Below are positions 5,027-32,185 of a DNA stretch of 39,821 nucleotides, in pieces. Positions within the stretch are counted from its first letter, which is position 1; the number at the start of each line of letters is the position of its first letter. A program made the translations under genes and the position numbers. The notes under the pieces are model-generated. The model ran no database searches, had not been told where the DNA came from, and saw nothing but the letters and a program-made list of their open reading frames with translations. This DNA comes from Hydrurus foetidus (taxonomy: Eukaryota): NCBI GenBank assembly GCA_900617105.1, contig UYFQ01000749.1:1-39821 (forward strand), in the 5' to 3' direction.

Positions 5027-5031
5027 TGCAC

Positions 5032-5349
5032 TGTTGGAGTATCCGGAGAAAAGACACTGCTGTAGTTGTATAGTATATGTATGGATCCTGACGGACAGCG
5101 GCGTGTACCCTGGGGTACGAACCGCTGACCGTTGGATGTATGGGCTCGAGGAGCCATCCATTCATCTGTCTTCAACATGGATGAAAAACGTGCAATTGCC
5201 TTGATATGTAAAGCTTCGTTGCCGTCTTGATTGATGCCGGTGCACAAGTTTAATTATCAAGTAATTATACAACACAAGTCTATTTTACGAGCCTTGGGTC
5301 ACCGGTCGCTACGAGTTGCAAAGCATCCGGATTCTGAGAATCCCCAACA
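5032..5349 (+). repeat. 5' LTR of B2
   Basis: TGTTGG...CCAACA; direct repeat of 10256-10573. Confidence 0.97.
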
Positions 5350-5359
5350 TAATTAAACT
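5350..5359 (+). other. B2 primer-binding site, complementary to its own LTR motif 5247-5256
   Basis: TAATTAAACT is the reverse complement of AGTTTAATTA. Confidence 0.8.
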
Positions 5360-5375
5360 AGATCAGCGCATCGAG

Positions 5376-8300
5376 ATGCCGCCGAAGAAACAAGAAGAAC
5401 CAAAGTCAGGTGCAGAGCACTGCATGCTGAAGATCGGACATCAAAACAACGTGGTGCAATGCAGAACGAGGCATGCGGCCTGTACGGCATGACCGGCATG
5501 TTCTTCAGCACCAACAAGAGATACGTCCATCCGTACCCTCGCGAGGAGGATTACAATCCCACCTTTCAAACGGTGGATACCGATACCACTGACGGCGGGT
5601 ATCGAAAATGAAGACGGGGAAGAAGATGAAGATGGATCCGTAGACCCAGAAAATGTCATGATCGGGCCACAGCTCCCTCCAGAGCTCCTGTCGTGTACTC
5701 TGAGGCACTCATCGACAAGCTGCGAGCCGGTGCGTTCGAAGGACGCCGTAAGGCAGTCGAGACCCAAAAAGTCGATGAGCAAAAGCTTTTTCCACTCATG
5801 TGGTCGAGGATGTCGACTGGGTCCAAGTCCAAGGTTCGAGAGGAGCCAGGATTCGAGGCATGTCGCCTCAGACTCGACAGTGTGCAACTGTGGGAGTTCA
5901 TTCGAAGGAGTCACTTAACTCACGTCTACGGCGAAGACGACTCAATGAGAGCAGTGAATGTCCACGAACAAACACTTAGGTATAACTACCTCAGACAGGG
6001 TGAACGTGAGGTAATAGGCGACTTCAAAACGCGCTTCGATAACCAGGTATTAGCCAACAGAGGTGTTGGTATGACTGAAGTGGAAGAACCGATACGTGCT
6101 ATCGACTTCCTCAGTAAGTTAGACCCAAAAAGGTATACCGGTATGTTGACACTTATGCGTAACAACGCTGTACAAAACCTACCAAACAGTTACCCTTCCA
6201 CCTTAGCCGGAGCATACAGGGTAGCGTCATCTTGGACCAACGCCGGCGGCGGAGTCCCCCTCGGAGCCGAGCAACATTCCGCATTCCTCACCGACACTTT
6301 GTTGGGAACAAAGGAAAAAGTCGCTGGAAAAGGGTCGAAAGGCAAGACAGCTGCGCCGAAGAAGAAATCATCGTCAGTGATTTGCTTCGTATGCGGAAAG
6401 ATCGGCCACTATGCAAAAGACTGCGAAGAACGCAAGGTCGGCGAGCAAGCACTGCTCACCGGTATCGAAGACCAAATCGAAGACGACGATGAGAGCGTCG
6501 AGGCAGCCTTCGTTACGACAAACGAAGTCGCTCTGTTCACGCGAAGTCATGTTCTGCTGGACAATCAGGCCTCCGTCAACATATTTTGCAACGGGCCTCC
6601 TGACAGATATCCGGAAATCGCAGCATGCGATCCTCCTCAACGGAGTCCAACTCGAAGCAAAGGGCGTCCGAGTTGACCAAGAAGGTGACTTCGGGGAGAT
6701 CGGCCCTGTATACTACAGCCGCAGGGCCACAGCCAACATATTGTCATTCGCAGCTATGGCTGATAGCGGTGCCGACATACGATACGAACATGAGACGGGG
6801 TGCTTCGTCATGCGTCCAGCGGGTAGCAGTACGTCTTACAGCTTCAGCAGGCAGAACCTGCCAGGTTCTACGGGACGATTCTACGTGTGCGATGCAAGCG
6901 GCATGGCTGGAGTGAAATCGCCCTGTCAGCCATCGAGCAGGTCATGGTTACTACTGTCAGAGACAACATGTTGAAGTTCACAAAACGCGAAATAGCGTCG
7001 GCAGCAGCAGCCAGGGAGATGCTAGCTCGTATGGGATACCCGCCGGTCGAGATGGCGATCGCGATGATACGCGGTGGGAACAACTTCAGCGTCTCGGAAG
7101 CCGACTTCCGAAACACAATCTGGGGCAAATGTCTTGGTGCGTGGCAAAAGTCACAAGAAATCTCGCCCGTGGCGGATATTTCGTTGACACCTGCGCCAGC
7201 ACAACAGCAGCAAGTGTTGAGTGTGGACATCATGTATCTGGAGGCCACAGCGATACTTATAGCAGTTTCTACCCCTCTGGATATGACCCTTGCTGTGAGT
7301 CTCATTCGACTCGACACTGGCAAGACCTCTCGTCAAGCGGCAGTGGTAAAGCCGGCATTGAATGAGATGATATCCATACTGAAATCCAGGAACTTCTTAG
7401 TGCATGTCATCATGTCTGACGGAGAAGGTGCTATTGGAAAAATGAGGCCTGACTTAATGGCACTCGGAATAGAGGTGGATGTGAGTGCAGCTGGCGGGCA
7501 TGTTGCAAGAATTGAACGACGAATACAGATGGTGAAGGAGAGAGCACGTGCTCACATATGCGGTAGACTTCCATTCACGCTGAATGAGCTGGGCAATACC
7601 TACCTAGCACTTTACTGCGTCTCACGTATCAACTGCCAGCAGTCAGGATCAAGGCCAGGGGGTCTCTCGCCAAGAGAACTTTTTTCGGGACGGCGGGTTG
7701 ATGGGACCCTGGACTTCCGTGCCGCGTTCGGAGACTATGCCGTTTGTACAGTACCTAATACTGACAACACGATGACATCACGTACTGAAGATTGTATTGT
7801 CATGCTACCTACACACAGCAGGACTGGATCATTCAAGATGCTTTCACTCACCACCGGCGAACGATCAACCGTGATATGCCCAGCCCATTCACACTGAATG
7901 CCATGGCATCAGAGAAGGGAAGAAAATCATCCAAACTAAATTACATGTGTTTGACGAAATGTTATTTGCCAACAGTCTTGACAAGTCTAACATGCCAACC
8001 TTCATTATAAACCCCCCCACTCAGGATCCACCTGTCGACAAAAGCGAGGGCCACAATCAACCAACCCTCACCGACTTACCATCAGCGGACATTTTCGACA
8101 GTCCTCCTTCTGATGTGGGGGGGTGGGCAGTAGCAGCCGCCATACCAGCAGCCGCCATACCAGATGAAATCAGAACTTCGGAGCTCGAGACAATTGGGGT
8201 GAACGGACAGGACATACTCACTCCACCATCACCCCCCACACCAATACCGCCATATGAACCAACACTCCCAGACGACATTCCAGACGGTGCACATGCACTC

Positions 8301-10111
8301 GACAGTGAGCCCACAGCACAACCAGTGCAGTCAACAGTGAGAGAGCAGCGAAGAGCGCCAGTACCCACAGAAAGGATGGTGACAAGGTCATCCCGCACGA
8401 GTGAAGATGCGTTCGTAATCAACGCTGTAGAGAGAATAGTCAAGACAGCAGCGTCGATACACAACGTGGAAGAGGTGTTACAGCGTCATAGAGACGAAGT
8501 TAGTAAGAGCAACACAGCCAACATCAGCGTCAGAGAGGCATTTCGCACCAGGGGTGACGAAGCCAAGAGAGTCATCGTGTCAGAGCTGAAGCAGATGATC
8601 GACAAGAGAGTATGGGTACCGTAATGGGAGGGAAGCTATCAGCGATGCAGAGGGCGGCGACGATCAGGTCCTCCATGTTCCTGAAGCAGAAGAACAACCC
8701 AAACGGGAGCTTCCACAAACTCAAGGCCAGGCTGGTCGCAGGAGGCGATCAGCAGGACAAGAGCCTGTACGAGGACCTATCGTCACCAACTGTGTCCACC
8801 AGCGCGGTGTTCACCCTGTTAGCGATCGCAGCACATGAGGAGCGTCGAGTCGCAGTAGTAGACATCAGTGGAGCGTACTTAAACGCAGACATGGCACTAG
8901 AAACGCCGGTGCATATGCGCCTGGACCGTACTATGACGGACCTAATTATTGACCTCGACCCAACATACAGTAAGTACACAGACGCGAGAGGCGGCGTGAC
9001 GGTACACTTGAAGAAAGCCTTATACGGGTGTGTTGAGAGTTCCGGGTTGTGGTATGAGAACCTACATGCCACCATGCTGGGACTGGGGTACGTACGGAAT
9101 ATCTGTGATAAATGTGTATTCAACCGAACAGGCCCAGACGGGCATCAGTGTACCGCTGCAGTGCACGTCGACGACTTCTCATAGCGAGTAAGAGCAAGGT
9201 CTATCATCCCACCTAGTCGACGGACTGCGGATTAGGTACGGTGCAATCACATTATCACATGGACCTTATAAATTACCTCGGTATGGCAATAGACATGCAT
9301 ATACCAGGACAGGCGATGATCACCACGACAGGATATTGCGACGAGATCGTCAAGATATCAGGAGTGAAGGGACCGCACGTCACCGGCCACAGAGGGGCTG
9401 TTCGAGACAAGAGAGGAGCTGTTCAGCAGCGAGCCAGTGCGAGTATGGTTCCACAAAGTCGTCGCCATGGTGCTATACCTGACCAAGCGCACGAAACCCG
9501 AGTGCCTAGTGGCAGTGGCCTTCCTAGCCACCCGCGTCAACAAGTGCACCGCAGACGATGTGGAGAAGCTCCAGCGGCTAGTGCGATACATACACGGAAC
9601 GAGGGACAGCGGCGTAGTGCTACGACCGGGTGCGGCGGGGATTTCAGTGAGACTTTTCGTGGACGCCTCCTATGGGGTGCACAGCGACGGGCGGTCGCAC
9701 ACAGGGAGCTGCGTAGTGATAGGCGATGTCGGAGCAGTGCACTGCAGATCCTCGAAGCAGCTCATCGTGACAAAGTCGAGCACGGAGGCGGAGCTGGTCG
9801 GGCTGTCCGACTCAGCCAATCAGAGTATATTCATCCGTACATTTCTCATTGCACAGGGTTACAAGATGGAGCCGGTCCACCACCAACCCTGCACCGGGTG
9901 GGCGAGGGAGATCCGAGGAGCGCACGCACGCCACATCCAGATCAGATACTTCTGGATCAAAGAGCGGGTGGACACCGGAGAAGTGCGGGTGGAGTACTTA
10001 CGCAGTGAGGATATGTACGCGAACGTGCTCACGAAGCCGCTTCAAGGATCCCAGTTCCTGAGAGAGAGAGATGGGCTCACAGGGTGGACCGCAGAGAAAG
10101 GAAAGAAATAA
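5376..10111 (+). pseudogene. B2 gag-pol, broken by many frameshifts and small deletions
   Basis: Starts MPPKKQEEPKSGAE. Fragments in several frames carry the CCHC knuckle (CFVCGKIGHYAKDC), LLDNQAS protease, integrase (SDGEG, ERRIQMVKE), RT (KARLVAGG, LKKALYG, HVDD) and RNase H. Colinear with B1. Confidence 0.92.
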
Positions 10112-10255
10112 GGGTGCCATCGACGAAGACGGGTAGCACTCGATACAAATAGTTAGATATTACTGCTTGCAAATCAATTCACATTTTCACTTTTGTTGCC
10201 GACATCAAAATCCAATGCGTGACTGGGTGCTCAACTACTGCGTGCCTGTTGGGTG

Positions 10256-10573
10256 TGTTGGAGTATCCGGAGAAAAGACACTGCTGTAGTTGTATAGTAT
10301 ATGTATGGATCCTGACGGACAGCGGCGTGTACCCTGGGGTACGAACCGCTGACCGTTGGATGTATGGGCTCGAGGAGCCATCCATTCATCTGTCTTCAAC
10401 ATGGATGAAAAACGTGCAATTGCCTTGATATGTAAAGCTTCGTTGCCGTCTTGATTGATGCCGGTGCACAAGTTTAATTATCAAGTAATTATACAACACA
10501 AGTCTATTTTACGAGCCTTGGGTCACCGGTCGCTACGAGTTGCAAAGCATCCGGATTCTGAGAATCCCCAACA
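10256..10573 (+). repeat. 3' LTR of B2
   Basis: Direct repeat of 5032-5349. Confidence 0.97.
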
Positions 10574-13500
10574 TGCACCCCGTACGATGCGTCTACGTAC
10601 AGCTGTACGGACAGTCCTAGCTTCCCTGGCCTCAACATCACTCCATCCAGCCTAGTGTAGTTGATATACTTTACCAGTCTCATCAGCTTGTCCACGTCAT
10701 CCATAGTGCACTTGTCGACGCGAGTGGTGAGGAATGCAACCGCAGTGAGGCACTCTGGCTTGGTGCGCTTCGCCAAGTATAGTATCATCGCTACGATCTT
10801 GTGATACCAGATCCGTGTGCCCTCGCATGCCCGTGGGGATCCATCTCTCAGCTCGAATAGGCCGTCTGTGGCGGGTGACTTGGCGTAGCCCACCACCCCT
10901 GATACCTTCACGATCTCCTCTGCGTATCCAGGCATGGTAATGCACGCTTGACCTGGTATTGTCATGTCTAAAGACATACCGAGATAGTTAAGTAAGGGAC
11001 CACGTGCAAGTGTGATAGCGCCATACCTTCTACGCAGTCCTTCGACTAGCTCATCGAGTGTCACCCTGCTCTTGCTCATTATGAGCAGATCATCGACATG
11101 TACAGTCGCTGTGCACTGGTGACCGTCACCCCCAGTCTTGTTGAACACGCACTGATCATAGTCGTTGCGCTTGTAACCCATGCATGACAGAGTGTTCCTG
11201 AGATTCTCATACCACAGACCCGCACTCTCAACGCACCCATACAGAGCCTTCTTCAGCAGCACTATGATGCACCCCCCCGCATCCACATACTTGCTGTAGC
11301 TCCAGTCGATCTCTGCAATGAACTCCGACATCGTACGGTCGAGCTTCATGTGCACCGGCACCCCCAGTGTCATCTCAGCATTCAGGAACGCTCCACTGAC
11401 ATCAAGCACTGCGACGTGTCGAACCTCATGTGCTGACACTCCTATCATCGTGAATACCGAGCTGGTCGATACAGTAGGTGAGGACAAATTCTCGTACAGG
11501 TCCTTGTCCTGTTGGTCTCCCCCTGCTACCAGTCTGGCCTTGAGCTTCTGGAAGCTTCCATCTGGGTTGTTCTTTTTCTTCAGGAACATAGACGAGCGAA
11601 TCACAGCTGCACGTTCCGCTGCAGTGAGCCGAGATCCCATCACTGGCACCCAGACTGCCTTATCCAGCATCTGCTTCAGCTCCTGGACTATCACCTTCCT
11701 AGCCTCCTCACCCAAACTTTTCAGCGCTTCCTTGACACTGATGTTGCACGTGTTGTTCCTAGTCATCTCGATGCGGTGTCTCTTGATCACCTCCTCTATG
11801 CTGTGTATCAGCGGTGCGCCTCTACGCACTGTCGGAGTCGACGCCACGAATGCCCCCTCACCAGTCCGGAAGAATTCAATCACTCTCTTAGTAGATGGTG
11901 GTGTCCCTGGTGCATCCCATTCAACTCGATCGACTGGCTGCTTGGGTACGCTCCACTGTGCCATCTCAACTGTCGTCAGTCCCACAGGTTGTGACGGCTC
12001 AATCGGTGTGATGTCGGTAGTGGTCGGTGGGATTGCATCCCCTTGAGGGATGGGTGGTGAGTCGGGAGTTTCAGTGGGGTAGTTGACTTCCACTTGAGAT
12101 TCTACTCTGCTAAGCTCTGGTACAGCCGGTACCTCCCCCCCCACTTCGTTGGGTAGAATCTCAATGACGTTGTCGGCTGTCGGAAGTTCTGCTACGACTG
12201 GCTGAGGTTGTATCGCATTGTCTATCACCACTCGTGTAGCACCGACAGTTGCGTCCTGAGTGGGGGGGTTGGTAATGAAGGTTGGCATGTTAGACTTGTC
12301 CACACTAGTTCCATACAACAGTTCATCAAATACATGCACTTTAGTTCGAATTATTTTCTTCCCTTCTCGAAGCGCCATGGCGTTCAGCGTCTGGATGACC
12401 GACTGAGGCATGGGAAGAATCTTGAATTGATCCCGAGTCACTATCCTCCCGCTAGTCAGTGAGAGCATCTTGTACGATCCAGTCCTGTTGTGAGTAGGCA
12501 GCATGACAATACAGTCTTCAGTACGTGATTCCATTGAGTTGTTAGTGTTTGGTACTGTACAGACGGCGTAATCTCCAAAGGCGGCACGAAAGTCCAAGTT
12601 CCCGTCAACCCTCCGTCCCGAAAAAAGTTCTCGCGGTGAGAGACCCCCCGGCCTCGATCCAGATTGTTGGCAGTTAATGCGTGAGACGCAGTATAGAACT
12701 AGCATCGAATTACCCAGGTCTGTGAGCGTGAACGGTAGTCGACCACAGATGTGTGCCCTAGCACGTTCCTTCACCATCTGAATCCGTCGTTCAATTCGAG
12801 CAACATGTCCGCCCGCAGCACTGACATCAACCTCAATTCCTAGGGCCATGAGATAGGGTGTCAATTTTCCTACTGCACCTTCTCCGTCAGACATGATCAA
12901 TCGGACCAAGAAGTTCCTGGATTTGAGAGTACAAATCATATCATCTAATGCCGCTTTCACAATTGGAGCTGCACGCGAGGGCTTCAACATATCGAGGTGA
13001 ATAAGGCTCCCAGAGAGGGTCAAGTCCAGAGGGGTTGAAACGCCGATAAGTACTGCTGTGTTGTTCAGATAGATAATGTCCACAGCCAAGACTTGCTCCT
13101 GCTGTACTTTCACAGCAGTCAGCGAGATGTCGGACACTGGTGTCGACATCTTATGTGTTTTGCCCTTCAGGCTTGCAAGACATTTGCCCCAGATCGAGTG
13201 AGCGACTCTGAAATCGTTCTCAGATACTCCGAAGTTGTTCCCCCCACGTATCATTGCTATCGCCATTTCCACCGGAGGGTATCCCATTCTCGCGAGAAGC
13301 TCTCGTGCCTTGGCGGCCGATGCGACCTCTCGTTTAGTATACCGCTGCATGTTGTCGCTGACCGTGCTGACGAGCGCCGTCTCAGATGGATGCTGCGTCG
13401 GGATGTTGCGCACCATTGTCCTCACGTCGCAGACGTAGAAGCGACCGTTAGATCCAGGTACGGGCTGTCGGCAGAAGCTGTAGATGTTTCTCGATCCCTT

Positions 13501-14943
13501 GGGTTGCAAGGTGAAGCGATTCGCCGAGTGATCGTATCGTATGTCCGCTCCGCGATCGACCATCACCGCGAATGAGAGGATGTTCGCCGTTGATCCCTGA
13601 CTGAAATAGACAGGCCCGACCTCTCCGAAGTCGCCTTCCAGGTCGACTCGGACTCCTGATGCCTTAAGCTGTACCCCGTTGAGCAGTATTCCATGCCTCG
13701 ATCGCCGAATGTCCGTGAGTAAGTTGGGGTTGCAGAAGACGTTTACCGACGCCTGGTTGTCTAGAAGGACGTGACTTTGGGAGAACAGCACGATCTCGGC
13801 AGAGGCTACGAAAGCCGACTCATCGGTCCTTTCGTCCTCTTCGAGATCTTCTTCTCCGTCTGCGAACAGTGCAATGTCGCTATGCTTGCGATTCTGGCAA
13901 TCTCTCGCGTAGTGCCCGACTTCGCCGCAGACAAAGCAAATCACTGACGATGATTGCTTCTTTGGCGTGCTCGTCTTCTTCGAGCGGCCTTTCTTCTCCG
14001 GGACTTTTTCCTTCGTCGTCATCGCGGAATCTGTCAAGTATGCGGAATGCTGTTCCGCGCCAAGGGGGACCCCTCCGTTCGAGTTCGTCCAAGACGATGC
14101 TACCCTGTATGCTCCGGCTAAGGTAGAAGGGTAACTGTTCGGCAAGTTTTGTACAGCACTGTTACGCATAACGGTAAGCATGCACGTATACCTTTTAGGG
14201 TCGAGTTTGCTAAGGAAGTCGATAGCCCTAATCGACTCCTCGACTTCCATCATACCTACTCCCTTGTTGGCTAAGACTTGATTGTCAAATCTTGTCTTGA
14301 AATCGCCTATGATCTCACGCTCACCCTGTCTGAGGTAGTTGTAGCGGATCGTCTGCTCATGGATGTTGACCGCTCGCATCGAGTCATCCTCACCATAGAT
14401 GTGAGTGAGATGACTGCGACGAATGTATTCCCACAGCTTCACACTGTCCAATCTCAGCTTCGCTGCCTCGAACCCTGGTTCTTCGCGAACCTTGGACTTA
14501 GACCCTGTCGACATCCTCGACCATATGAGCGGCCACAGCTTTTGCTCATTCACTCTTTGCAGCTCCACTGCTTTGCGTCGCCCCTCGAACGCATTGGCAC
14601 GTAATTTGCTGATTAGTGCAGGTGAGTACACCTCCGCCGCGGCTGGTGCAGGTGCAGGATGATCTTCCTCGTCACTGGGGTCCTCTGACCCGGTGTCGTC
14701 TTCATCGTCCTCTTCTGCACTCGGTACCACTGGTGGTGCAAGCGCAGGGTTGTAATCCTCCTCTCGAGGAAATGGGTAGACGTAACTTTCGTTAGTGGTG
14801 AAAAACATGCCGGTCATGCCGTAGAGGAGGCACGCCTCGTCCTGCATTTCTTCTCTCCATTGCACTACGTTGTTTAGACGTCCAATTTTCAGGATGCAGA
14901 CTTCTGCTCCTGGTTTAGCTTCCTCTTGCTTCTTTAGCGGCAT
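10574..14943 (-). CDS. B1 Gag-Pol polyprotein, main part (about 1613 aa when rejoined with 4555-5026)
   Basis: ATG at 14943 (MPLKKQEE). Contains CFVCGEVGHYARDC knuckle, LLDNQAS protease, integrase core, RT (KARLVAGG, DVSGAFLNA, LKKALYG, HVDD) and RNase H start YVDASY. The IN-before-RT order identifies it as copia. Confidence 0.96.
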
Positions 14944-14957
14944 CACGATGGCGCTGC

Positions 14958-14969
14958 CAAGTTTAATTA
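14958..14969 (-). other. B1 primer-binding site, complementary to its own LTR motif 15064-15075
   Basis: In element sense, PBS TAATTAAACTTG pairs with LTR CAAGTTTAATTA (12/12). Confidence 0.85.
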
Positions 14970-15302
14970 TGTTGGGATTTCTCGAAACCGGTTGCTGACA
15001 ACTGGTGCGTACGTGACCGGTACCCCAAGACTCGCGAAATAGACGTATAGTATAATCACTTGATAATTAAACTTGTGATGCCATCTGCAACATGACGGCA
15101 ACACAGTTTATTACATTCATCAAGATCGAAGCATGCATCACTCATATCATGGTATCTTGTGCGGACACAGTCCGCAAAGATCATGCATCCAACGGGGTCC
15201 CGGCCACTACCCCATGGGTACACGCCGCTGTCCGTCGGGTTCCACACACACGCATACACACACACACAACTACTACAGTGCATTTTCCCGGATTATCCAA
15301 CA
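14970..15302 (-). repeat. 5' LTR of B1 (333 bp)
   Basis: TGTTGG...CCAACA; repeat of 4134-4459. Confidence 0.93.
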
Positions 15303-15435
15303 TGAGCTGCCCCTCCACAATACCTGTGTACATCTAGAGATGTAGTAAGAAACTGATGAATTCTAACTATTCGAACAGGATCTGCTGCATTCGTGCTCGT
15401 AATTTCAGTCTCTCTGCGCCCTCGGAGCTGCAATA

Positions 15436-18400
15436 ATGACATCAATACTTTCGGGAGAGAAAATTCCGCTCCTCTGTTCAATCTTATTTTATGTCTTGCT
15501 TTGCCCCTATACGAAAGTAGAAGAGAGCTTCAATATGCAAGCGTCACATGACTTGCTCTTTCTCGAAAACAACCATTTATTCCCTATGTGGTCGCTGCAA
15601 TCTCCTACATCCCTAAGCTCATTTGATCATCTGGAATTCCCGGGAGTTGTGCCACGAACGTTTCTTGGTGCTATATCTCTAATTTTGGTTTCATGGCCCT
15701 GTCATCTCGCTGTAAAAGTGCTGCATGCCATGCAAATCGTTCCCGATATTCAAATCCTATATCTCTACCTCGTTCGGTCTGCATTAGGAGTTTGCTCATG
15801 GCTGTCATTCACAACATTTTCGGACTCTGTTGCTTATCGGTTCGGATTTGGCGCGGGCAGAATGACTTGCATTCTGACTACTTTCCAGTTTCATCTGCCA
15901 TTCTACATGTCTAGGACCTTACCGAACTCTTTTGCCTTGATCGGCTGCCTTCTTGCCTACTCTCGATGGATACGTGGGAAAGGAGTTGAAGCGCTCTTGG
16001 TCATCACATTCTGCATGATAGTTTTCCGTTGCGACCTGCTTTTGCTGCTTGCTCCTCTCACACTGCAGCAATTACTCTCGAGGGAAGCTCCCTTGATTCT
16101 GACTGCAGTGCTAGGAATATCCACTGCACTGGTTTCCCTCCTTCTGACTGTATCTGTTGATTCTTTCTTCTGGCAGAGGTGAGTTCCAACGCCACAATTG
16201 AATTCCACAGATTATAATCTGCAATAATCGGAGCTACTTGCAATATCTGGGGTCATACATTTAGTCTTCAATAATGCTTGGCGATCATTGATACTCTCAC
16301 GAATGAAGATTGAAATTAACACAGCTATCATCTTATCTTCTGTCACGCATTCTCTGAAATACTTCTAATCTGAATCAATTGCCATCATGGTGCATTCACC
16401 ACATTATTTCTTACGGTTAATGCCCTTTAGATTATTGTGGCCTGAAGGAGTTGTTCTGTTTTTCAACACAGTGGCAAATCGGAGCAGCGAGTGGGGTGTC
16501 TTGTCCTGGCACTGGTATTTCTCTAACGCCCTACCTAAGGTAACTATTAGTCACCTATTCCTGTTTAGTTGTGATTTAGAAAACAATGATTTTAATGATG
16601 ACATGAAGTTGAGGGTCGACAAATGATAAAAAAAGGCTCAGGCAGGTCAGCGTTAAAAGAGGATGTTAAACTACAGATCTGAAGGTCAACTGGCTGGTCC
16701 GCTGTAAACATCTGGCGACTGGGATAAACATCAAATTTTAGTGATAAGATGATCTTTGTTCCAATTTGCTAATGCGACTCACGTAGAACAGAATTTACTC
16801 TGTCTTGCGTCAGCAGTGAAGGTGTTCGTGTATTTCGTCTTCATAGGTCTCACTGATTTTGGTCGAGTTAAGGGTCATAGTTCATGAAGTGGTATAGATT
16901 GAGGAGGAAAAACGAAGGCATTCTCACTTTTCCATTTGAACTTAACTCACACAATAAGTCTTACAATACGCTCTCTTAAACTATCTACCTACCTGTCTAT
17001 CTATCTATCTACCTATCCAACTATCAATCTATCTATCTAACTATCAATCTATCTATCTACCTATCTATCTACATATCTATCTACCTATGTATCTAACTAT
17101 CTATCTCTCACGTAAACTCTGTCTCTTTCTCAGTTTCTCACGCACTCTTAAACACACTCTCTGTCTGTCTAACCCACGCGCACGCATTCGCTATCTCTGG
17201 CAGTCGCTTCACATTAGCCTGCCCCTTGCTGTGTGCGCTGTTATCGGTCTGCGGTGTCCCATGCAGCTACTCCACACCACACGGAGTTCCTCGAATTCTA
17301 TATCTTCAGACAAGATTGCGGTTTCAGCTACAATAAGCGATGGAGAAAAGGAAGCAGAAAAAGAAGAAGAAGTATTGGAAGGTAAGGGAGACTAATTTCT
17401 AGATAACAGAAGCAAATTCTGTCCGTACTGAAAAGAAATTACCTTCACTTGTCCGCTTTTAGATACAACAGTAAGGCGCTTAGCGCTGCTTAATTGTTTT
17501 GGCCCTCCAGACTTGGCGGTGCTGTACTACTGCTTGCCGGCTATCTCATACACTGCTATTTACAGCATCCTGCCTCACAAGGTACCGCTCACCTTCTCAT
17601 GCTCTTTCTCTGATGCTCTTTCTGTGATGCTGTTGCAGTCATGCTCACCTTCTCATGCACTCCCTTTTTCTTCTGTATGTGGTCGCATATCGTATATCTG
17701 CGGCAGATATCTCTTACATCAAATGTCTCCACTAACTGGGAACATTCCGTTGATAGGAGTTGCGGTTCTTGTTTCCTGTGATGCCGCTTCTTGTCATGGC
17801 TGCGGGTGTTGGTTTCAACAGACTGCTACCTCTCGAAGACCACTACATTCCATTTTCCGAGACCTCTTCCTTTGACAGAGATCTCTATGATGCATCAAGA
17901 TCACGATCGTGCGGTGCATCAGGCTACAGCAGTGTGTCTTCTTCTGTCCCTACTACACACACTAATGACGTAAAGGTCGCAACTGCTGATGCGACTGTTA
18001 CTTCTTCAAGCAGCACTACTGGTGAGAACGAACATGTGGCCAATAAGGGAGTGAAAAAAAGAAATACAGTGAGTCCCAGTACTGACGACGTGGCAGATTC
18101 CAGACAGAGTTCCAGTTCCGATCGCAGTCACAGTGATAGTCGTCACATTAAAAAGCGCAGTGTAGCTGAACATGTCGTCTTCAGGTGAGAGCTGTAACTT
18201 TAACTATTACTGCACTGCTTATATGCCTATCGTCACGATACATTATATTGTGCCGTGTTGCTCCGTAGGAGGTGGTGTGATGTATTGTTGCCACCAAATC
18301 ACTTGTGATGTGGAATCAATGTATCGTTCCATCTTCTTCCGAACGGCTCGATTCATCATTACGCGCTGCATCGAATCTTAGGGCAATTCGTGAGATCACT

Positions 18401-23123: not shown

Positions 23124-24756
23124 TCATGCGACTCCGTTCAAGGAGAGCAGTCTGACATCGATTTTAAGCGCAGAGTTGGGAGGAATCCTATTAGCTGCAG
23201 GTTTCCCCATTTCTTTCTTCAGCTCCAGCCCTTCCTTCCCGAAGGCCAATTTTGCAGGCAGAGTAATGAGCCTTCTCTCTCCTACGCACATGCCTCTCAC
23301 AGATGCATCCCATCCACTGGGCAGTGCAGAGCCGCTGCTGTAGCTAGAAGGAGCGTTTGAGCTGGCAGGACCGAGAACAAAGTAGATGCTGTCATCAGAT
23401 GGCCTAGATCCTTTGAAAGAAGGGAGACAACGACGAGAGTCACATCAACTGAAATGAAGTGAAGCGAAATGAAGGCACCTTGACAACCCAAGAGCACACA
23501 ATACGAAAAAAACTAAATACAATGATGTGCAGTGTTAAGGAAAGTACTTTCTTAATGATCTGCTGACTCACCCTGGCTGGCTAGGACCTTCGCACCGTCA
23601 ATGAGCTGTCCCTGTCCCCCACTGGACTCGTCCCCTGCTATGCGGACCTGGTAGCTCACCTCCACCACGTCTCCTATCGCTGCAGAGCGCACACAAGCAC
23701 CCTTACCCTTCTGAAGAGAGTGAGAGGAGAAGAATGGCAGAAGATTAGTGATGGGCCAGACAGAAATGTGCTCAAGATTTGTGTTGTCATCGAGCAGTGA
23801 GCTGTGGAGAGGAATCAGATGAAGAGCGGAACAGGCTAGATAGGCATTAAGCTTTATTGCTGATCTCGCTATAGAAGATGTCGACAGAGGTATGTGCTTA
23901 GCCATATGATCGATGCATATATGTAGAAATGTACTGCAGCTATCTAGCCAGGTGATGGCACCTCTAGTCTCTCCACCCGAAGTGTTTGGGACGGGGATAT
24001 GGCAGTCTCCACAACAAGGTTAACGGCGCCTCCACTATCAGGTGAGCTGCTATTGAGTTTTTGAAAGAACATCTCTCTACTACGGAAGACCAGACTAAGT
24101 GGTCGAGGGGCTGCTTTGATAGATTCTATGACCTTTTTGAGGCAAATTGAAACGTTGCCCTTTTAAGTCCTGTGAATGTCAACAATGATGAGCAGCGGAC
24201 TTGCACCAAATACCTGTGATCGATCTTGACCCTCCACATTGACGTCATTCAACGCAACGAGAATCATGCCTGGCTTCACCATGTTAATCACACTTTCATC
24301 GGCATTTTCCTTGACGCTCTGCACGCAAACTCGAGTATTTTTCTTGTCTCCGTATTCAAGTTCTGTGAGACCGATACCAAGGTATGCCCCTCGGATTATC
24401 ACCTCAAATTCATCAGACATAAGCAGTATCGGTTTCACTGCAGCATCTGACGCACATGCTACTCCTCTTTGGAGAAGAACTAAGCTAACCGCCATGAAAG
24501 ATGCAACTGTGGCTTTAGTTTGATCTCGCGTGACTTGATCGACTGATACAGGCACCACCTCTGAAATCCTGGGGAGTCCTTGTTGGGAGAGGCTGGGTAT
24601 TTCACACTTGGCAGAACGTGCACACATCCGCATTGAGTGTTTTGGCTGCGAAAAAGCAGCTGTATCTGATGCAATCATGCTCAGAAGAATGTGAAAGATT
24701 GAATACAGCCAATTGAGCCGATGGAGATGCATGGCAGGCAATCGGTCAGACGCCAC
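23124..24756 (-). CDS. Plastid-targeted PDZ-like + FKBP-type peptidyl-prolyl isomerase; exons 24756(or 24732)-24214, 24132-23962, 23710-23572, 23410-23124
   Basis: The spliced translation gives a PDZ-like segment (YLGIGL..VKPGMILVALNDVNVEG..VIESIKAAPRPLSLVFR) and an FKBP domain (GDVVEVSY, FVLG, GWDASVRGMCVGERRLITLPAKLAFG, IPPNSALKIDVRLL). The N-terminal hydrophobic stretch ends in AAF. Introns are GT-AG and in phase. Confidence 0.88.
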
Positions 24757-24932
24757 CGGAAAGCTGAAAGTGCCGAGAGGAGGCGTCTACTTTCGAGATT
24801 TTATCGCGTTTTGCGTGAAGTTTTGGTGCATTATCGAGCTGAAGCTCAGAGCTCGATGCCTCGACTTTCTATCCGATCTCTCTCCGAACATTCTCAGTGT
24901 TGTTGAAGAAGACTTGGACTGGAACTTGGACT

Positions 24933-25232
24933 TGTTGATAGCGCACGTACAACATAGTTAACACGCACCGTACGCAGCGTACATACCAGGGCGCACGTAC
25001 AACACATGTACGCAGCGTACACACCAGGGCGCACGTACAACACATGTAACACACATTGTACGTAGCGTACATACACTACACATCGTACGCAACTATCATT
25101 TTCAAACACTGTCAATTGCAGCAACAGTTAGCCATGCGTATTGACTTCCATCCCGCATAATTTAATTCCAACACCTGTGAAACACGTACATTCGTTTCAC
25201 CTTTGGTGCGCAATTTAATCTGCGGATCAACA
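24933..25232 (+). repeat. 5' LTR of C
   Basis: TGTTGAT...ATCAACA; contains a 38-bp tandem duplication at 24970-25045. Confidence 0.97.
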
Positions 25233-25243
25233 GTTGGAATTAA
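25233..25243 (+). other. C primer-binding site, complementary to its own LTR motif 25162-25172
   Basis: GTTGGAATTAA is the reverse complement of TTAATTCCAAC (11/11). Confidence 0.85.
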
Positions 25244-25250
25244 CCTCATC

Positions 25251-26345
25251 ATGGCCACTTTTCCGGTGACTTTAATGGATCAACCTCGACAAAATTTTCG
25301 GTCATTTTATCGGGCAGCAGTCGCCTCCTATGGTGCTGCGTGCACCACAGTCCACCAGCACGGCCTGCTTGGATTTATCTTAAATGATGCACAATGGGAA
25401 CAACTTCCCGGAAATCTCGTTCCCAACGCCGATCCTGAACTACCAAACGAAGTCGTGCCTCGCCCTACCATCATTCTTCCCGTCACGCCGGCTGCCAACG
25501 CCACTGCCCTCACCATCAAAGTCTGGGAGAAGCGCCTCGCAGAAAATGTTCTAGTGACCGATAGCCTAAGATCTCTCAAAGCACAACTTATCGCCAGCGT
25601 CCAACCAGCTGATATCGTCATTCTACACGACCCATTTTTTGGTCTCCTCAATGTGCCGGCATTGACAATAATGATACACCTTACAGAACTCCACGGCACG
25701 TTGAACAGCACCGACTTCGCCCACCTTCGCTCTCAACTGTCACTCCCGATGACACCCAACGCATCTCTCCAGGATTTTATCGGGACACACCAGTTACTTC
25801 ACGATCAATTCTCAGAAGCTCAGCAACCCCTGTCCGAACTTGACAAGTGTCATCACTTTCGCGAAGCAGTTAAAACGCTTGCACACATCAATCATGCAAT
25901 CGACTCCTACTTAGTCGCTCATCCCCTAGTGGGGGGACAAAACTTCAGAGCGCTCACCGCACACACGCTCCAACAAGCACCCAACTTCACTCCAACAGCT
26001 GCAGCGATGGGTTACGCAGCGACCATCACCCAAAATCACAGCACAATTCTCGACGTTGACAACGTGTCCGCACTACTGCACACACCAGCATTCGCCGCTC
26101 TCATCACAGCCGCCGTAAAGGCGGCCACTCCGGTTAATCCTCGCGGCCAACGCACCCGCACCCCGGCTGCGAAACGTCCCCCGGCTGCTGCCCCCCAAAA
26201 AGACAGACTGTATTGTTTCCACCACGGGTATGACAGTCATCGCGGTTCCGACTGTAGACACATGTTCACGAATGACTTCGCCGCTGATCAACGCGCCACT
26301 ACAAATCACAATACTATATCCGGTGCGTCCACCGCTCGATTCTGA
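25251..26345 (+). CDS. Element C Gag
   Basis: ATG at 25251, just after the PBS. C-terminal variant knuckle YCFHHGYDSHRGSDC. Ends in TGA. Confidence 0.88.
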   Translation: MATFPVTLMDQPRQNFRSFYRAAVASYGAACTTVHQHGLLGFILNDAQWEQLPGNLVPNADPELPNEVVPRPTIILPVTPAANATALTIKVWEKRLAENVLVTDSLRSLKAQLIASVQPADIVILHDPFFGLLNVPALTIMIHLTELHGTLNSTDFAHLRSQLSLPMTPNASLQDFIGTHQLLHDQFSEAQQPLSELDKCHHFREAVKTLAHINHAIDSYLVAHPLVGGQNFRALTAHTLQQAPNFTPTAAAMGYAATITQNHSTILDVDNVSALLHTPAFAALITAAVKAATPVNPRGQRTRTPAAKRPPAAAPQKDRLYCFHHGYDSHRGSDCRHMFTNDFAADQRATTNHNTISGASTARF

Positions 26346-29300
26346 CGGTTAGGGGCGGCGCAAGAGCTTTTCTGTTATCTTCCTGCACGGTGTAACTTAA
26401 CTCAAACAACCTCTTCAGTCGTCCCCCCTTCCCTTTGTGCCGACACTGGATCCACGCACACGTTGCTCCGTGCATCAGATGCCCCATATATCAATAGCAT
26501 CGAAACAAGTCTTCATGTGCTCCTCCCCAACGGCGCTACTATCTCATCTATCGGTGCTTGCAACCTCGATTTTCCAAACCTCCCGCACACTGTGCCGTGT
26601 CACATCTTTCCAAATGACGTTCTCAATACTTCCCTATTATCCATATCGCAACTTTGTAAAATGGGATGTGTCGCTACTTTCTCGGCCTCCGATGCCTCAA
26701 TCACATTCAGCAACCGCCCCGTACTACGTGGCCTCAAATCGCCCGACGACAACCTATGGACTCTACCTTTTCTAGCCTTCAACACTGCACTCCTTCCCAC
26801 AGTACGTGCTGCGTACGCACTGTCATCAGATGCCTCGTTTGTAAAATTCACGCACGCTTCACTTGGTAGCCCCTCACTCACTACCTTGACGAAAGCTGTT
26901 CGTCGTGGCTATCTTCACTCGTACCCGCGACTCACATCACTCATGTTAAATGCTCATCCGCCAATTAGCATCGCCACAGCTCAGGGACATTTGGATCAAC
27001 ATCGCCAAGGTCAAAATTCAACTCAGATTCCTGTCACCATCTTTGACACAAACGACACCGATGAGGATCTCGTGCCAGCTGACGCTCCCACACAGCTCAC
27101 CGCTTACACACGAGTTGTCCTTCTGTCCGATACTTTACATTCCGACCTCACCGGTCGGTTTCCGGTAACATCACACAATGGTGCTCAATACATATTTGTG
27201 TCAGTCTTAGACGGTTACATCCATGTTGAAACAATGAGAACAAGGCATCATACAGAGTACGTTACAGCCTACAAAAAGACGCTAAACTTTTTCGCTCAGC
27301 GTGGCCGCCGGCCCGCCTTTCAACGCTTGGACAACGAGACATCCGGTCCTTTAGAAGCATTCGCAACTGCCAACAACATCAGCATACAGTATTGCCCGCC
27401 GCACACACACCGCTCACTCAAAGCCGAACGAGCAATTCGCACTTTCAAAAACCACTTCATAGCCACTCTGGGCACAGTAGCTTCAGAGTTCCCCATGACG
27501 CTTTGGGATGAACTGCTGCCGCAGGCCGAGCTTTGCCTGAATCATCTGCTGCCCTACAGTCCCAACCCCGCTGTATCAGCGTATGCTGGAATCCACGGCG
27601 GTGCGCTAGACTTCACTCGACATCCCATCGCTCCAGCCGGAACTCGTATCCTTATCCACGACAAACCCACTGTTCGATCCTCCTGGGCACCGCATGGAGT
27701 CCCAGGATACTACCTCGGCCCCGCGCTGCAGCACTATCGGTCCTACCGGGTTTGGTCATCCACTTCCAAAGCAACCCGCATCTCCGATACTTTAGCGTGG
27801 TTTCCTAGCGGGTTTACAGTCCCCGGACCAAGCCCACACGATAACCTTCTCGCCGCAGCTATAACGCTGAAGAAAACACTCACAGAATTTAATTCATTGC
27901 CTACACAATTTCGTACCAATTCGCAACCCGGAGTTTCCGTCATAGAATCCGTCATTACCGATTTGGCCGGGATCTTGGGTACAGACCCGGCCGGAACTGT
28001 GGGTACCGATCCGGATACCGTAAGTACACCCGCACCAGCGCTAGCTCTCCCTGCTCCAACGTATTACACCACACTCATAGCACCTTCAGTCGCTGCTATC
28101 CCTCTTCCTTTGCCGGACTCTCGCCAAGAACAGAGGGTGGTCCCCAATATAAGCACTACCGATCTACCTCCTTTATCCCCTCCGTTTGCAGAACACGAAG
28201 TGCCTCAACCTCTTGTGTCCCCATCAGTCCAGATACCAGCCGGTCCACACCAACATCTGAACACTTCCACCCAATATGACTCTCCCAACATTCGCATCAC
28301 AAGCCATCATCCACGACGACCATCGGTACCGCTCCCACCTCAGATCTACAGAAATTCTACCCACCCACCTCAGTTCGCAGCTGCCCTTACCACGCTTAAT
28401 CTTGACGACCACGGCCAACCGTTACGTTACTCAACCGCCAAAGCGGGGTCCAATGCACTACTGTGGCAACAAGCCGAATCCGAAGAGCTCGACAGACTTC
28501 TTGCAACTGAAACGATTCGGCCCATTTTCCTGGCTCAGCAACCTATTGATCGCAGACGGGATACAACTTATTACAACCCTCAGACAAAAGAAAAGCAAAA
28601 TGCTTCAGGTGAAAGAACATACCGCATCCGTGGCACCATCGGTGGCGATCGTATCCATTATCCCGGCCCGACAACTGCTCGAACCGCTGCAATGCCCCTG
28701 GTAAAAATCCTTCTTCAATCAGTCATATCCGACGGAAGCAAATGGCTCACCATTGATATCAAAGATTATTACCTAAACACGCCACTTCCTCGCCCTGAGT
28801 ACCTGCGCATCGCGTCAAAATTTCTCCCGTCTACAGTAATTCATCAACACGACCTTCAGCAATTTTTTCATAATAATGCTATCCTCTTCCAAGTCAACAA
28901 AGGTATGTATGGGCTCCCCCAGGCAGGACTCCTCGCACAACAAAGACTCATCACTCACCTGGCATCCGAAGGCTATCATCAAACCGATACTATTTGTCTC
29001 TTTCGCCATGTGACTAATGGAACGGTGTTTTCGCTTGTCGTCGATGACTTTGGAGTCAAATACACAAATATGGACGGCGTCAACCACTTAATTCAAACGC
29101 TCCAAGCCTTATACACCATCACCGTTGACTGGACAGGTTCCAAGTATCTCGGTTTCTCGATTGACTTTGATCAACGTCATCGTACTGTTACGCTCAGCAT
29201 GCCAGGTTATATTGCTAAAGTGCTTCAGCGCTTCGCGCCATTACTCAAAATTGGAGCCAATTCTCCAGCTGTATACATCCCACCCAAGTATGGCGTCGGA

Positions 29301-30173
29301 CAACAGACACCACACATCGACACCAGTACACGTCTATCACCCGCAGAAACTACTACATTACAAGAGATTGTTGGCTCCCTTCTCTATTACGCCAGAGGTG
29401 TAGATGTAACCATATTGCCGGCGGTAACACACCTGTCGTCCCTACAAGCGCAACCTACACAAGACGTTCTCCAGGCCGCGCAACGCCTCTTAGCTTACTG
29501 CTCACGCTATCCCAACAATGGTCTCCGATACTATGCATGCGATATGATCTTACATATTCAGTCGGACGCTTCCTATCTCTCTCGTCCCGGAGCTCGTTCT
29601 GTAGCTGGAGCTCTCTTTTACCTGGGAAATATTGGTCAACCCACACACATCAATGGTTCTGTACACGCACTCAGTTCTATCATACCTGCTGTCGTGGCCT
29701 CTGTCGCTGAAGCTGAATATGCAGCTCTCTTTCACGCTGGCCAAGAGGGAATTTGGCTCCGGCATATTCTCCAATCGCTCGGATATCCTCAACCGTCAAC
29801 AACCATTCTGTGCGATAACAAATGCGCTGAGGGAATCGCATTAGACACCATAAAGCCAAAACGCACCAAAAGCATCGACATGCGTTTCCACTGGATTCGT
29901 GATAGAATTCGTCAAGGACAATACACAGTCACATGGCGCAAAGGAGCCGACAATCTTGCTGATTTTTTCACAAAACCTCTGCCTGTTCACTTACATCAAA
30001 AGCTTATGCCGCTGCTCGTTCACATTCCTCCTGCCCAGTACGCCACAAACACCACAAGCTCAGCATCTCGTGCACTCACTCATCGAAACAAAAAGGCTTC
30101 AACCACCGAAACTCCCCCTAATTATACTGATTTGAAGGACGAGTTGGTGGGATTCACCTACAGTGCTTCGTAG
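26346..30173 (+). CDS. Element C Pol (PR-IN-RT-RH), in frame with gag behind a single TGA
   Basis: The frame is open from 26346, with protease ADTGSTH (DTG at 26442-26450), integrase (SDLTGRF, RLDNE, KAERAIRTFK), RT (DIKDYYL, KGMYGLPQAG, VVDDF) and RNase H (SDASY, AEAEY, CDN, KSIDMRF, NLADFFTK). Confidence 0.93.
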   Translation, partial: RLGAAQELFCYLPARCNLTQTTSSVVPPSLCADTGSTHTLLRASDAPYINSIETSLHVLLPNGATISSIGACNLDFPNLPHTVPCHIFPNDVLNTSLLSISQLCKMGCVATFSASDASITFSNRPVLRGLKSPDDNLWTLPFLAFNTALLPTVRAAYALSSDASFVKFTHASLGSPSLTTLTKAVRRGYLHSYPRLTSLMLNAHPPISIATAQGHLDQHRQGQNSTQIPVTIFDTNDTDEDLVPADAPTQLTAYTRVVLLSDTLHSDLTGRFPVTSHNGAQYIFVSVLDGYIHVETMRTRHHTEYVTAYKKTLNFFAQRGRRPAFQRLDNETSGPLEAFATANNISIQYCPPHTHRSLKAERAIRTFKNHFIATLGTVASEFPMTLWDELLPQAELCLNHLLPYSPNPAVSAYAGIHGGALDFTRHPIAPAGTRILIHDKPTVRSSWAPHGVPGYYLGPALQHYRSYRVWSSTSKATRISDTLAWFPSGFTVPGPSPHDNLLAAAITLKKTLTEFNSLPTQFRTNSQPGVSVIESVITDLAGILGTDPAGTVGTDPDTVSTPAPALALPAPTYYTTLIAPSVAAIPLPLPDSRQEQRVVPNISTTDLPPLSPPFAEHEVPQPLVSPSVQIPAGPHQHLNTSTQYDSPNIRITSHHPRRPSVPLPPQIYRNSTHPPQFAAALTTLNLDDHGQPLRYSTAKAGSNALLWQQAESEELDRLLATETIRPIFLAQQPIDRRRDTTYYNPQTKEKQNASGERTYRIRGTIGGDRIHYPGPTTARTAAMPLVKILLQSVISDGSKWLTIDIKDYYLNTPLPRPEYLRIASKFLPSTVIHQHDLQQFFHNNAILFQVNKGMYGLPQAGLLAQQRLITHLASEGYHQTDTICLFRHVTNGTVFSLVVDDFGVKYTNMDGVNHLIQTLQALYTITVDWTGSKYLGFSIDFDQRHRTVTLSMPGYIAKVLQRFAPLLKIGANSPAVYIPPKYGVGQQTPHIDTSTRLSPAETTTLQEIVGSLLYYARGVDVTILPAVTHLSSLQAQPTQDVLQAAQRLLAYCSRYPNNGLRYYACDMILHIQSDASYLSRPGARSVAGALFYLGNIGQPTHINGSVHALSSIIPAVVASVAEAEYAALFHAGQEGIWLRHILQSLGYPQPSTTILCDNKCAEGIALDTIKPKRTKSIDMRFHWIRDRIRQGQYTVTWRKGADNLADFFTKPLPVHLHQKLMPLLVHIPPAQYATNTTSSASRALTHRNKKASTTETPPNYTDLKDELVGFTYSAS

Positions 30174-30336
30174 GCCGACACCCATACCACCGCCGGCGAG
30201 CACCCTTTCGGGGATCGAACCGACGGCCATTCGATTATGATTGATCATCACTGACCAATCACGTCACAACTCTGTCTTTTTGTCCTGAAAATACGAATAC
30301 ATATCTGTTCAAGCATGCACCATGTTTGAGAGGGTG

Positions 30337-30636
30337 TGTTGATAGCGCACGTACAACATAGTTAACACGCACCGTACGCAGCGTACATACCAGGGCGCAC
30401 GTACAACACATGTACGCAGCGTACACACCAGGGCGCACGTACAACACATGTAACACACATTGTACGTAGCGTACATACACTACACATCGTACGCAACTAT
30501 CATTTTCAAACACTGTCAATTGCAGCAACAGTTAGCCATGCGTATTGACTTCCATCCCGCATAATTTAATTCCAACACCTGTGAAACACGTACATTCGTT
30601 TCACCTTCGGTGCGCAATTTAATCTGCGGATCAACA
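30337..30636 (+). repeat. 3' LTR of C
   Basis: Direct repeat of 24933-25232; differs at 30608 (C) vs 25204 (T). Confidence 0.97.
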
Positions 30637-30655
30637 GGACTACTTGTTCCTGTAT

Positions 30656-31047
30656 TGTCGGATATTGCAGATAGCACTATCTGTCGGAATAACTGTGTGA
30701 TAAGTAACCGTATAAGTTATTACGTATGTACATTTAATGACGTTTCGTACGTCGTGTGCCACGTGGAGGTCGCTACTCCACCGGTCCAAGTTCTTTTTCC
30801 ACATCCAGGAACATTAAAAATGAAAGTACACCATGTTTGACTGTGCGGGACAGATCGAATTTCTCGACTGTCTCCATGAACTATGTAAGCTACGTTGCAT
30901 TGTTAATTACTTTAAACTCCAAACCAAACCCACTTTCGCCTTGAGCCCGGGAAAGTGACCAGAAGACAGGTTGAAGTTGCAGAAGGAGAGCGGACCCAGG
31001 AAGGATTTAGTTGCCCATTCAGTGGAACTAAAGCGTGGACTCCGACA
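30656..31047 (+). repeat. 5' LTR of D (392 bp, partner LTR not in window)
   Basis: TGTCGGA...TCCGACA terminal inverted repeat, directly upstream of the PBS-like motif and the gag ATG. Confidence 0.75.
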
Positions 31048-31058
31048 TAATTAACAAT
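31048..31058 (+). other. D primer-binding site, complementary to its own LTR motif 30899-30909
   Basis: TAATTAACAAT is the reverse complement of ATTGTTAATTA (11/11). Confidence 0.8.
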
Positions 31059-31072
31059 TGCACTTTCATCCT

Positions 31073-32185
31073 ATGAAAGGAAAAGCTGCAGACAAGAAAC
31101 CTTCTGGCAAGGGCGGCCCTGCCAACGGCGGCAGAGGCAATGCCGGCCGTGGAGGCTTCAAGCCTCCACCCCGAACAGGAACGGTAGCGGCCATAGGCGC
31201 GTTCCTGGATTTGGGGAAGGAAATGAACCATGGTAGCGTAAGCGCATGGATGAGAAAATTTAGAGAGTATACGCGGACCAACTATAAATCAGACATTTGT
31301 GACATATTTGGAAACGAAGGCATACCGGGAGAATATCCCGTCCTAGTGGCTCCTGCCGATATAGCGGAGGACGCGAACTTCATGCAAATTGCAAGATGGA
31401 AGAAAACACTGGACCTCTACGACAAGAAAATGATCGAACTAGAGACCGACAAGAAGCAGGTTTTCGGCCTGATGCTAGGTCAGATAAGCGAGACGTCTAA
31501 GGCGACTATCCGCGAAACTGAACCGGGCCTGGCCGCGATCACAGCGGAGAACCCGCTATTATTCATGAGAGCCACCATCCTCACCCACCTGTCCGACCCG
31601 AAGCTGGGAGCAGACGAGAACTTACTACGGGTAAGGATGGCCTATGAGACCGTAGGAATGGAGCCCAACGATGTCCTCAAGTACTACTACCAGCGCTTCA
31701 AAGCCCTGAAGACTGGATACGATGATACCAAACGGGTCCTAGGGATCGAGCCGGTGTATACACCGGCCATGACCATACACGAGAACCTTCTCACGGGAAT
31801 GACGTTCATGAAGGGACTCAACTCGGGGTACAAACAGTTAGTAGAATACTACGAGCGTGGGATTAAGGACTGGCCAGATTCGCTAGATGAAGCGTACTTA
31901 GAGATGGCGAAGGTGACTCCCAGAAAACCGGCCGGATCGGGCCCACCTAACCAATCTAATATCTTTGCAGTGAAAACAGCTGGAGGAGAAAAATCAGTAG
32001 GTAGAGAGAAAGGAAAGTCAACTGGGGATGCGGGAAAAGGGAAGGGTGCACGTCCGGGATACGGCACCCGACCCGGGATTTGTAATTCATGTAAGGAACC
32101 AGGACACTATGCATATGAGTGCACTGCCCAGGAGAGCCAATCGGCTGCATCAGCAGCCAGTGGACACTCGAAATCGGTAAACTAA
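31073..32185 (+). CDS. Element D Gag
   Basis: ATG at 31073, an RGG-rich N-terminus, and the knuckle CNSCKEPGHYAYEC. Confidence 0.88.
   Translation: MKGKAADKKPSGKGGPANGGRGNAGRGGFKPPPRTGTVAAIGAFLDLGKEMNHGSVSAWMRKFREYTRTNYKSDICDIFGNEGIPGEYPVLVAPADIAEDANFMQIARWKKTLDLYDKKMIELETDKKQVFGLMLGQISETSKATIRETEPGLAAITAENPLLFMRATILTHLSDPKLGADENLLRVRMAYETVGMEPNDVLKYYYQRFKALKTGYDDTKRVLGIEPVYTPAMTIHENLLTGMTFMKGLNSGYKQLVEYYERGIKDWPDSLDEAYLEMAKVTPRKPAGSGPPNQSNIFAVKTAGGEKSVGREKGKSTGDAGKGKGARPGYGTRPGICNSCKEPGHYAYECTAQESQSAASAASGHSKSVN

Follow-up and report, generated by a model that had tools for sequence, protein, structure and literature searches.

Primer-binding sites complementary to their own long terminal repeats point to probable Tf1-like self-priming in Ty1/copia elements of Hydrurus foetidus

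The DNA analysed here, a stretch of 39,821 nucleotides from Hydrurus foetidus (contig UYFQ01000749.1; hereafter the window), carries several copia elements grouped about an ALG12-like gene of the host. Four of these elements retain a 5' long terminal repeat (LTR), and in all four the primer-binding site (PBS) behind it is exactly complementary to a stretch of 10–12 nt in the same LTR. Judging from this and from related sequences, these Ty1/copia elements probably start reverse transcription as Tf1 does, using no tRNA as primer but the 5' end of their transcript. The features are given below (TSD, target-site duplication; PR, protease; IN, integrase; RT, reverse transcriptase; RH, RNase H).

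5032–5349, plus strand: B2 5' LTR (TGTTG...CAACA), 318 nt, 100% identical to 10256–10573; TSD TGCAC at 5027–5031 and 10574–10578
5244–5256, plus strand: B2 predicted self-primer; putative start at the A (5244) of an Initiator-like CA, paired stretch 5247–5256
5350–5359, plus strand: B2 PBS TAATTAAACT, directly adjoining the LTR
5377–10111, plus strand: B2 gag-pol region, broken into several frames, with a zf-CCHC match
10256–10573, plus strand: B2 3' LTR, with a polypurine tract ending GGGTG just before it
15302–4134, minus strand: B1, whole element, with B2 nested within
14970–15302, minus strand: B1 5' LTR, 333 nt, 94.6% identical to 4134–4459
15064–15076, minus strand: B1 predicted self-primer; TCA with its A at 15076, paired stretch 15075–15064
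14958–14969, minus strand: B1 PBS TAATTAAACTTG, pairing exactly with its own LTR
10574–14946, minus strand: B1 gag-PR-IN-RT-RH in a single frame, with RVT_2 and zf-CCHC; cut by B2, the RNase H remainder lying at 5031–4555
4134–4459, minus strand: B1 3' LTR, with a copy of the motif at 4228–4239
24933–30636, plus strand: C, complete element; TSD GGACT
24933–25232, plus strand: C 5' LTR, 300 nt, one difference from 30337–30636
25157–25172, plus strand: C predicted self-primer; nearest CA with its A at 25157 (putative start), paired stretch 25162–25172
25233–25243, plus strand: C PBS GTTGGAATTAA, pairing exactly with its own LTR
25251–30173, plus strand: C gag (to 26345), then pol, with one in-frame TGA between
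30337–30636, plus strand: C 3' LTR, forming a pair with the 5' LTR
30682–31047, plus strand: D 5' LTR (TGTCGGA...TCCGACA), 366 nt; no 3' LTR in the window
30899–30909, plus strand: D predicted self-primer; putative start at the A of GCA
31048–31058, plus strand: D PBS TAATTAACAAT, pairing exactly with its own LTR
31073–35779, plus strand: D gag and pol in three frames, breaking off near 35779 within RNase H
36770–37086, minus strand: B3 3' LTR, with the B motif kept at 36863–36874; its PBS lies beyond the window

The elements have the domain order gag-PR-IN-RT-RH and a copia-type RT, integrase motifs preceding the RVT_2 (PF07727) matches in B1, C and D. The complete set of TG...CA LTRs, polypurine tract and 5-bp TSD is present in B2 and C; B1, flanked by CAGAG and TGAGC, has no matching TSD and D has no 3' LTR. 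B2 sits inside the RNase H coding region of B1, flanked by the TGCAC duplication. The catalytic D/E/D motifs of RNase H were found in A (a further family), C and D, and also in B1, where they lie on either side of the inserted B2. Only the 3' parts of A and B3 are inside the window. B1 and D are 43% identical in their RT; C is 21–24% identical to either of them. By RT sequence, the elements with a 5' LTR represent two deep copia lineages, B plus D on one side and C on the other; the RT tree is a quick IQ-TREE result with no outgroup, and no order of events is claimed from it.

A sequence-only reading of the window had claimed that the bases following each 5' LTR are the exact reverse complement of a motif within that LTR. 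This is so for all four elements with a 5' LTR, and all eight strings lie where it had placed them. It is equally right that the helix begins at the first base after the LTR. The LTR ends were set independently of the pairing for B2 and C, from LTR pairs and TSDs; for D the start at 30682 is supported by a polypurine tract preceding TGTCGGAAT in contigs of other D copies, and the end is supported by a 7-nt terminal inverted repeat. In 5000 dinucleotide shuffles of each element's own LTR, an exact partner arose once for B2, once for D and never for B1 or C; the four pairings are beyond chance. In B1 and B2 the helix is one pair longer and reaches the last A of the LTR. A 20-nt run containing the motif is among the longest identical stretches of the B1 LTR against that of B2 or B3, the LTRs being 67–69% alike. 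Folding from the predicted start gave a mean helix pair probability of 0.89–0.99 (0.99 for B1).

The further claim that three families use different motifs while keeping the pairing holds only in part. B1 and B2 share one PBS and that of D starts with the same TAATTAA, so that we see two deep lineages rather than three independent motifs. Likewise, the absence of a canonical tRNA-type PBS needs qualification, since the C PBS carries TGG at bases 3–5, but this TGG does not have the geometry of a tRNA match. Taken as the 3' end of a tRNA it was rejected: it would put G at position 61, where tRNAs carry C, and the closest relative tested, L084, has TAG there.

Relatives of B and D came from one metagenome scan, which gave 78 loci of 25–39% identity; the junction is complete in 34, only the head of a contig is available in 21, and the remaining 23 have too little sequence upstream. 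For blind scoring the polypurine tract gave the LTR start, and the LTR end came from the best terminal inverted repeat alone; five of the 34 junction loci had no automatic LTR start, which left 29 in the count. Perfect pairing over 9–16 nt from offset 0 was present at 19 of these 29 loci (18 of 28 without a duplicate), against a background of 12 in 6662 positions. The five loci lacking an automatic start are paired over 14–16 nt. Among the 21 head-only loci six are paired, one (L008) is doubtful and 14 show no pairing at a credible LTR end, several of the latter beginning less than 200 nt before gag. The looser-search sites of L016 and L040 were left out as spurious, and the pair L006/L012 was not counted, the register of L006 being uncertain. 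As to the ends of the repeats themselves, the L035 LTR seems to begin with AG and end with CT, and the L005 LTR ends with CT, both instead of TG...CA, and the LTRs of L001, L004, L080 and L084 end with CAATA; pairing is kept in all of them. Three scans of viral contigs found no relative.

Relatives of C number 15 loci (L079–L093), all on contigs of prokaryote genome bins; nine were examined and six, with the match near the contig start, were skipped. The bins holding C-lineage copia are probably cases of eukaryotic contamination, with misbinned contigs. All four C relatives that hold the junction are paired, over 9, 15, 11 and 11 nt. The PBS of L084, in the C clade, is GTTAGTAAATA as against GTTGGAATTAA in C, each matched by its own LTR; the TGG of C is therefore not conserved. 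Complementarity is kept with different letters in relatives of both lineages; the estimate of a primer of about 11 nt in the sequence-only reading was too short, the relatives pairing over 9–16 nt and mostly 14–15. Named C relatives are from Spumella vulgaris and Fragilaria crotonensis, a protein of the latter falling in the C clade. Those Atlas neighbours that have a recorded taxon are, for both lineages, mostly Bacillariophyta.

No two of the 18 distinct blind sites have the same PBS 11-mer, and when the elements are combined crosswise, 10 of 11 pairs are reached in 0 of 306 combinations. A covariation alignment was built from 16 loci, selected for having helices of at least 14 bp. Each of its 224 cells is paired, 75 of them changed on both sides and none on one side, counts which relatedness inflates; none of 500 shuffles scored as high, and slid registers pair at 41–53%. 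RNAalifold, unprompted, found this helix alone in the 16 loci. Two pairs of close RT sisters, L063/L064 and L038/L044, have three PBS differences each, all compensated in the LTR. From the CA to the helix end we counted 471 Watson–Crick pairs, no G-U pair and seven mismatches; the sites had been selected for perfect pairing, which favours this result, and no junction-complete locus was lost thereby. Among the curated sites the loop measures 57–224 nt, and in 29 of 38 a pyrimidine directly follows the helix.

A CA marks the 5' edge of the paired stretch, or lies just before it, at 15 of the 18 blind sites and 34 of the 39 curated ones (background 0.11–0.12), and TCAHW stands at this edge in 11 of 18 and 25 of 38, respectively (background 0.017). 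Initiators are published as TCAH(+1)W for a diatom (PMC4686930) and as YCAYTYY for oomycetes (PMC3599244). The stramenopile Initiator-like edge gives indirect support to the paired stretch being the putative 5' end of the transcript. The start that the sequence-only reading had predicted at the motif agrees with B1, B2 and D. For C and for L080, L084 and L089, its relatives, the nearest CA is 4–6 nt upstream of the paired stretch; as it sits upstream of the helix, the primer of the C lineage may be partly unpaired, carrying a 5' tail.

Support for the inference of self-priming comes from a pairing that abuts the LTR end and starts on an Initiator-like motif, that each element has in its own form, and that covaries and contains no G-U. 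In the mechanism that we favour, RNA polymerase II would start at an Initiator-like (T)CA, and the first 10–16 nt of the transcript would fold onto the PBS across the loop of 57–224 nt. The RNase H of the element would cut just past the paired stretch, as in Tf1, and the freed 3'-OH would be extended from the U5 end. The primer would then be copied during plus-strand synthesis, the PBS being rewritten from the LTR motif in each cycle; under this proposal the pairing would be purely Watson–Crick because of such rewriting. We infer such copying of the primer into the PBS, in place of upkeep by selection on RNA structure alone.

Several findings weigh against this reading. The blind rule missed 10 of 29 loci, whose pairings turned up only afterwards at another CA-like end (a looser later search gave 10–15 nt in nine, and 9 nt were seen by eye in L016). 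Among head-only loci L017, which begins about 370 nt before gag and has CAACA ends, shows no pairing of 9 nt or more and may be a true exception. In C most of the 4–5 nt that separate the helix from the nearest CA have no partner. The fold of B1 is not robust, the helix being lost (0.08) when 60 extra 5' bases are included, a behaviour which in the folding model fits a start at the motif. Tf1 is said, from the title of a cited paper, to need a U5-IR-like stem; RNAalifold found no consensus stem in the loop of the aligned loci, and the loops do not exceed upstream U3 in structure (mean folding z of −0.86 vs −0.70, with 8 of 38 loops and 5 of 37 U3 controls below −2). Within the D motif, the change of T to C at 30901 is common in D-family contigs (25967 of a depth of 68562, run X1) and no partner change at 31056 is listed at a 10% share; the two sites are not linkable on one molecule.

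Some of these points suit a primer that stems from the element's own LTR without Tf1-style folding in cis and RNase H cleavage, acting in trans or released by a host nuclease; possible sources in trans are the 5' end of a co-packaged copy or short capped transcripts of 3' or solo LTRs. The same complementarity, Initiator and covariation would be expected, no conserved U5 stem was detected in the loop, and the D-family motif variants have no listed PBS partner. We nevertheless regard it as unlikely, given that the Tf1 precedent is a cis process with RNase H (PMC7175516), that the loop at curated sites stays within 57–224 nt with a strongly favoured cis helix, and that the prevalent pyrimidine after the helix fits a preferred cut site. 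Less probable still, by a clear step, is that the helix is a structural element of the 5' leader, serving packaging, dimerisation or translation control, with a tRNA priming elsewhere. Retroviral and LTR leaders are structured, and C has TGG near its LTR end. Against such a role stand the exact start of the helix at the first base behind the LTR, its end on an Initiator-like CA, and the lack of observed G-U among 471 pairs, structural helices usually tolerating such pairs; TGG within the first six bases occurs in C only (1 of 39 curated sites) and is not kept in L084.

The explanation to which, judging by the PBS sequences, we give the least credence, next to none, is binding of the PBS to a host tRNA half, as in Osser, Bryco, Bianca and FunCo1, with the LTR match being secondary. 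Half-tRNA priming is known in copia (PMC6317226, PMC5445492), and an anticodon-arm reading with GTT is possible for the D PBS. A loose test of tRNA-half geometry, which the FunCo1 control passes, also lets through 10 of the 39 sites; nine different anticodons are read in these, among them the stop-reading TTA and CTA, so that the fit is at chance level. The candidate assignment of the D PBS to a tRNA-Asn half was rejected. Moreover, 36 of 39 PBS 11-mers differ, each matching its own LTR, and conserved tRNAs therefore cannot match them.

Self-priming from the transcript's own 5' end thus remains the preferred reading, and its best-described counterpart is Tf1, in which the 11 leading bases anneal to the PBS and are cut off by RNase H between bases 11 and 12 (PMC7175516). 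The mode is described for Tf1 and Tf2 of Schizosaccharomyces pombe, Tj1 of S. japonicus and the Tf1/sushi group of Ty3/gypsy (PMC7175516, PMC4600332, PMC5341516). The window elements share with that group an LTR-adjacent PBS complementary to a stretch of their own LTR, but have the copia order with RVT_2, whereas Tf1/sushi elements have the Ty3/gypsy order RT-RH-IN. In contrast to Tf1, they and their relatives pair over 9–16 nt with no conserved U5 stem detected, and their start and cleavage sites are predicted ones. They are not members of Tf1/sushi, and would work like Tf1.

The premise of the sequence-only reading that copia elements are primed by tRNAs is incomplete: self-priming has already been predicted for the plant Ty1/copia lineage TAR, including Houba and Osr-1 (PMC6317226). 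By that account 89% of 203 TAR elements are predicted to be self-primed, on the basis of an LTR stretch complementary to at least 10 bp that start 0–5 bp after the LTR. Self-priming copia is not new in kind. TAR resembles the window elements in this criterion of prediction and in being copia with a 5-bp TSD (PMC6317226), but has plant hosts, whereas the window elements are stramenopile and their relatives environmental, chrysophyte or diatom. Judging by host, the window elements probably do not belong to TAR. They resemble CoDi elements (CoDiI, CoDiII and CoDi6) in being divergent copia by RT and in having diatom relatives; a term search in the text of the defining CoDi paper (PMC2806351) yields no 'tRNA' and a single 'PBS', which is a buffer, priming not being described in the text so searched. 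Fungal GalEa copia are reported to have no tRNA PBS and a Conserved Hairpin Site with a palindromic 9-mer after the LTR (PMC5445492). The B and D PBSs similarly begin with the palindrome TAATTA, but the GalEa partner is given as 12–41 bp downstream of the first 9-mer, with no LTR complement, whereas here the partner is upstream, inside the LTR. A literature search, outside subscription journals and repeat-database entries, found no report of self-priming copia in stramenopiles.

The experimental proof that we found concerns the gypsy-type Tf1; for copia there was a prediction in one plant lineage. Two deep copia lineages now show the self-priming signature, with strong covariation and a predicted start at a stramenopile Initiator. 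The coordinates given are exact and testable, and diatom hosts are genetically tractable. The result bears on the proposal, put forward in PMC3601003, that tRNA priming is a late addition to LTR elements. A wider view is that self-priming, with no U5 stem and with a PBS rewritten each cycle, is the standard mode of both stramenopile copia lineages, and that tRNA-free priming is ancient and perhaps ancestral in Pseudoviridae; this we consider conceivable, yet rather doubtful. In practical terms, pipelines that discard LTR elements whose PBS is not recognised, as described for one diatom annotation (PMC7466962), could under-count such families.

The elements show some further peculiarities of coding and copy number. 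The LTRs of B2 are identical, yet its coding region (5377–10111) is spread over many frames, which suggests either indel errors of the assembly or a non-autonomous young copy. At the end of C gag (26343–26356) a single in-frame TGA is followed by CGGTTAGGG. An in-frame TGA or TAG after a long open frame is present in six of the seven C relatives checked (L079, L080, L082, L083, L084 and L089), and AGG occupies positions +6 to +8 after the stop in C and in five of these six, L083 having GGAGGG. This pattern suggests a conserved, putative stop-codon readthrough in the C lineage. In D, gag and pol overlap in different frames at 32119–32185, where a programmed frameshift is possible; the frame changes again at about 33299–33330, perhaps through decay or an assembly error. 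In contig runs X1–X3 the D LTR (30682–31047) is covered far deeper than the C interior, so that D is probably a high-copy family, with the caution that depth is no copy number.

A fifth family, A, is represented by its 3' end at 1–1009 and about 1520–1975, with RNase H intact and 65% DNA identity to D; its polypurine tract and LTR start are present and its PBS lies beyond the window. Within the window ARAGORN found no tRNA gene, and Rfam gave nothing at gathering score. The host gene (15403–16540) contains introns, encodes an ALG12-like alpha-1,6-mannosyltransferase and starts about 100 nt from the B1 5' LTR; its best named matches are stramenopile, with about 45% identity, and together with the named C relatives they suggest an ochrophyte host of chrysophyte-like kind. 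A microsatellite of (CTAT)n type occupies 16961–17129, in an intron or intergenic stretch. Finally, the unannotated stretch between D and B3 contains a local hairpin (36709–36741), whose 5' arm corresponds to the motif region of the C LTR at 17 of 19 bases.

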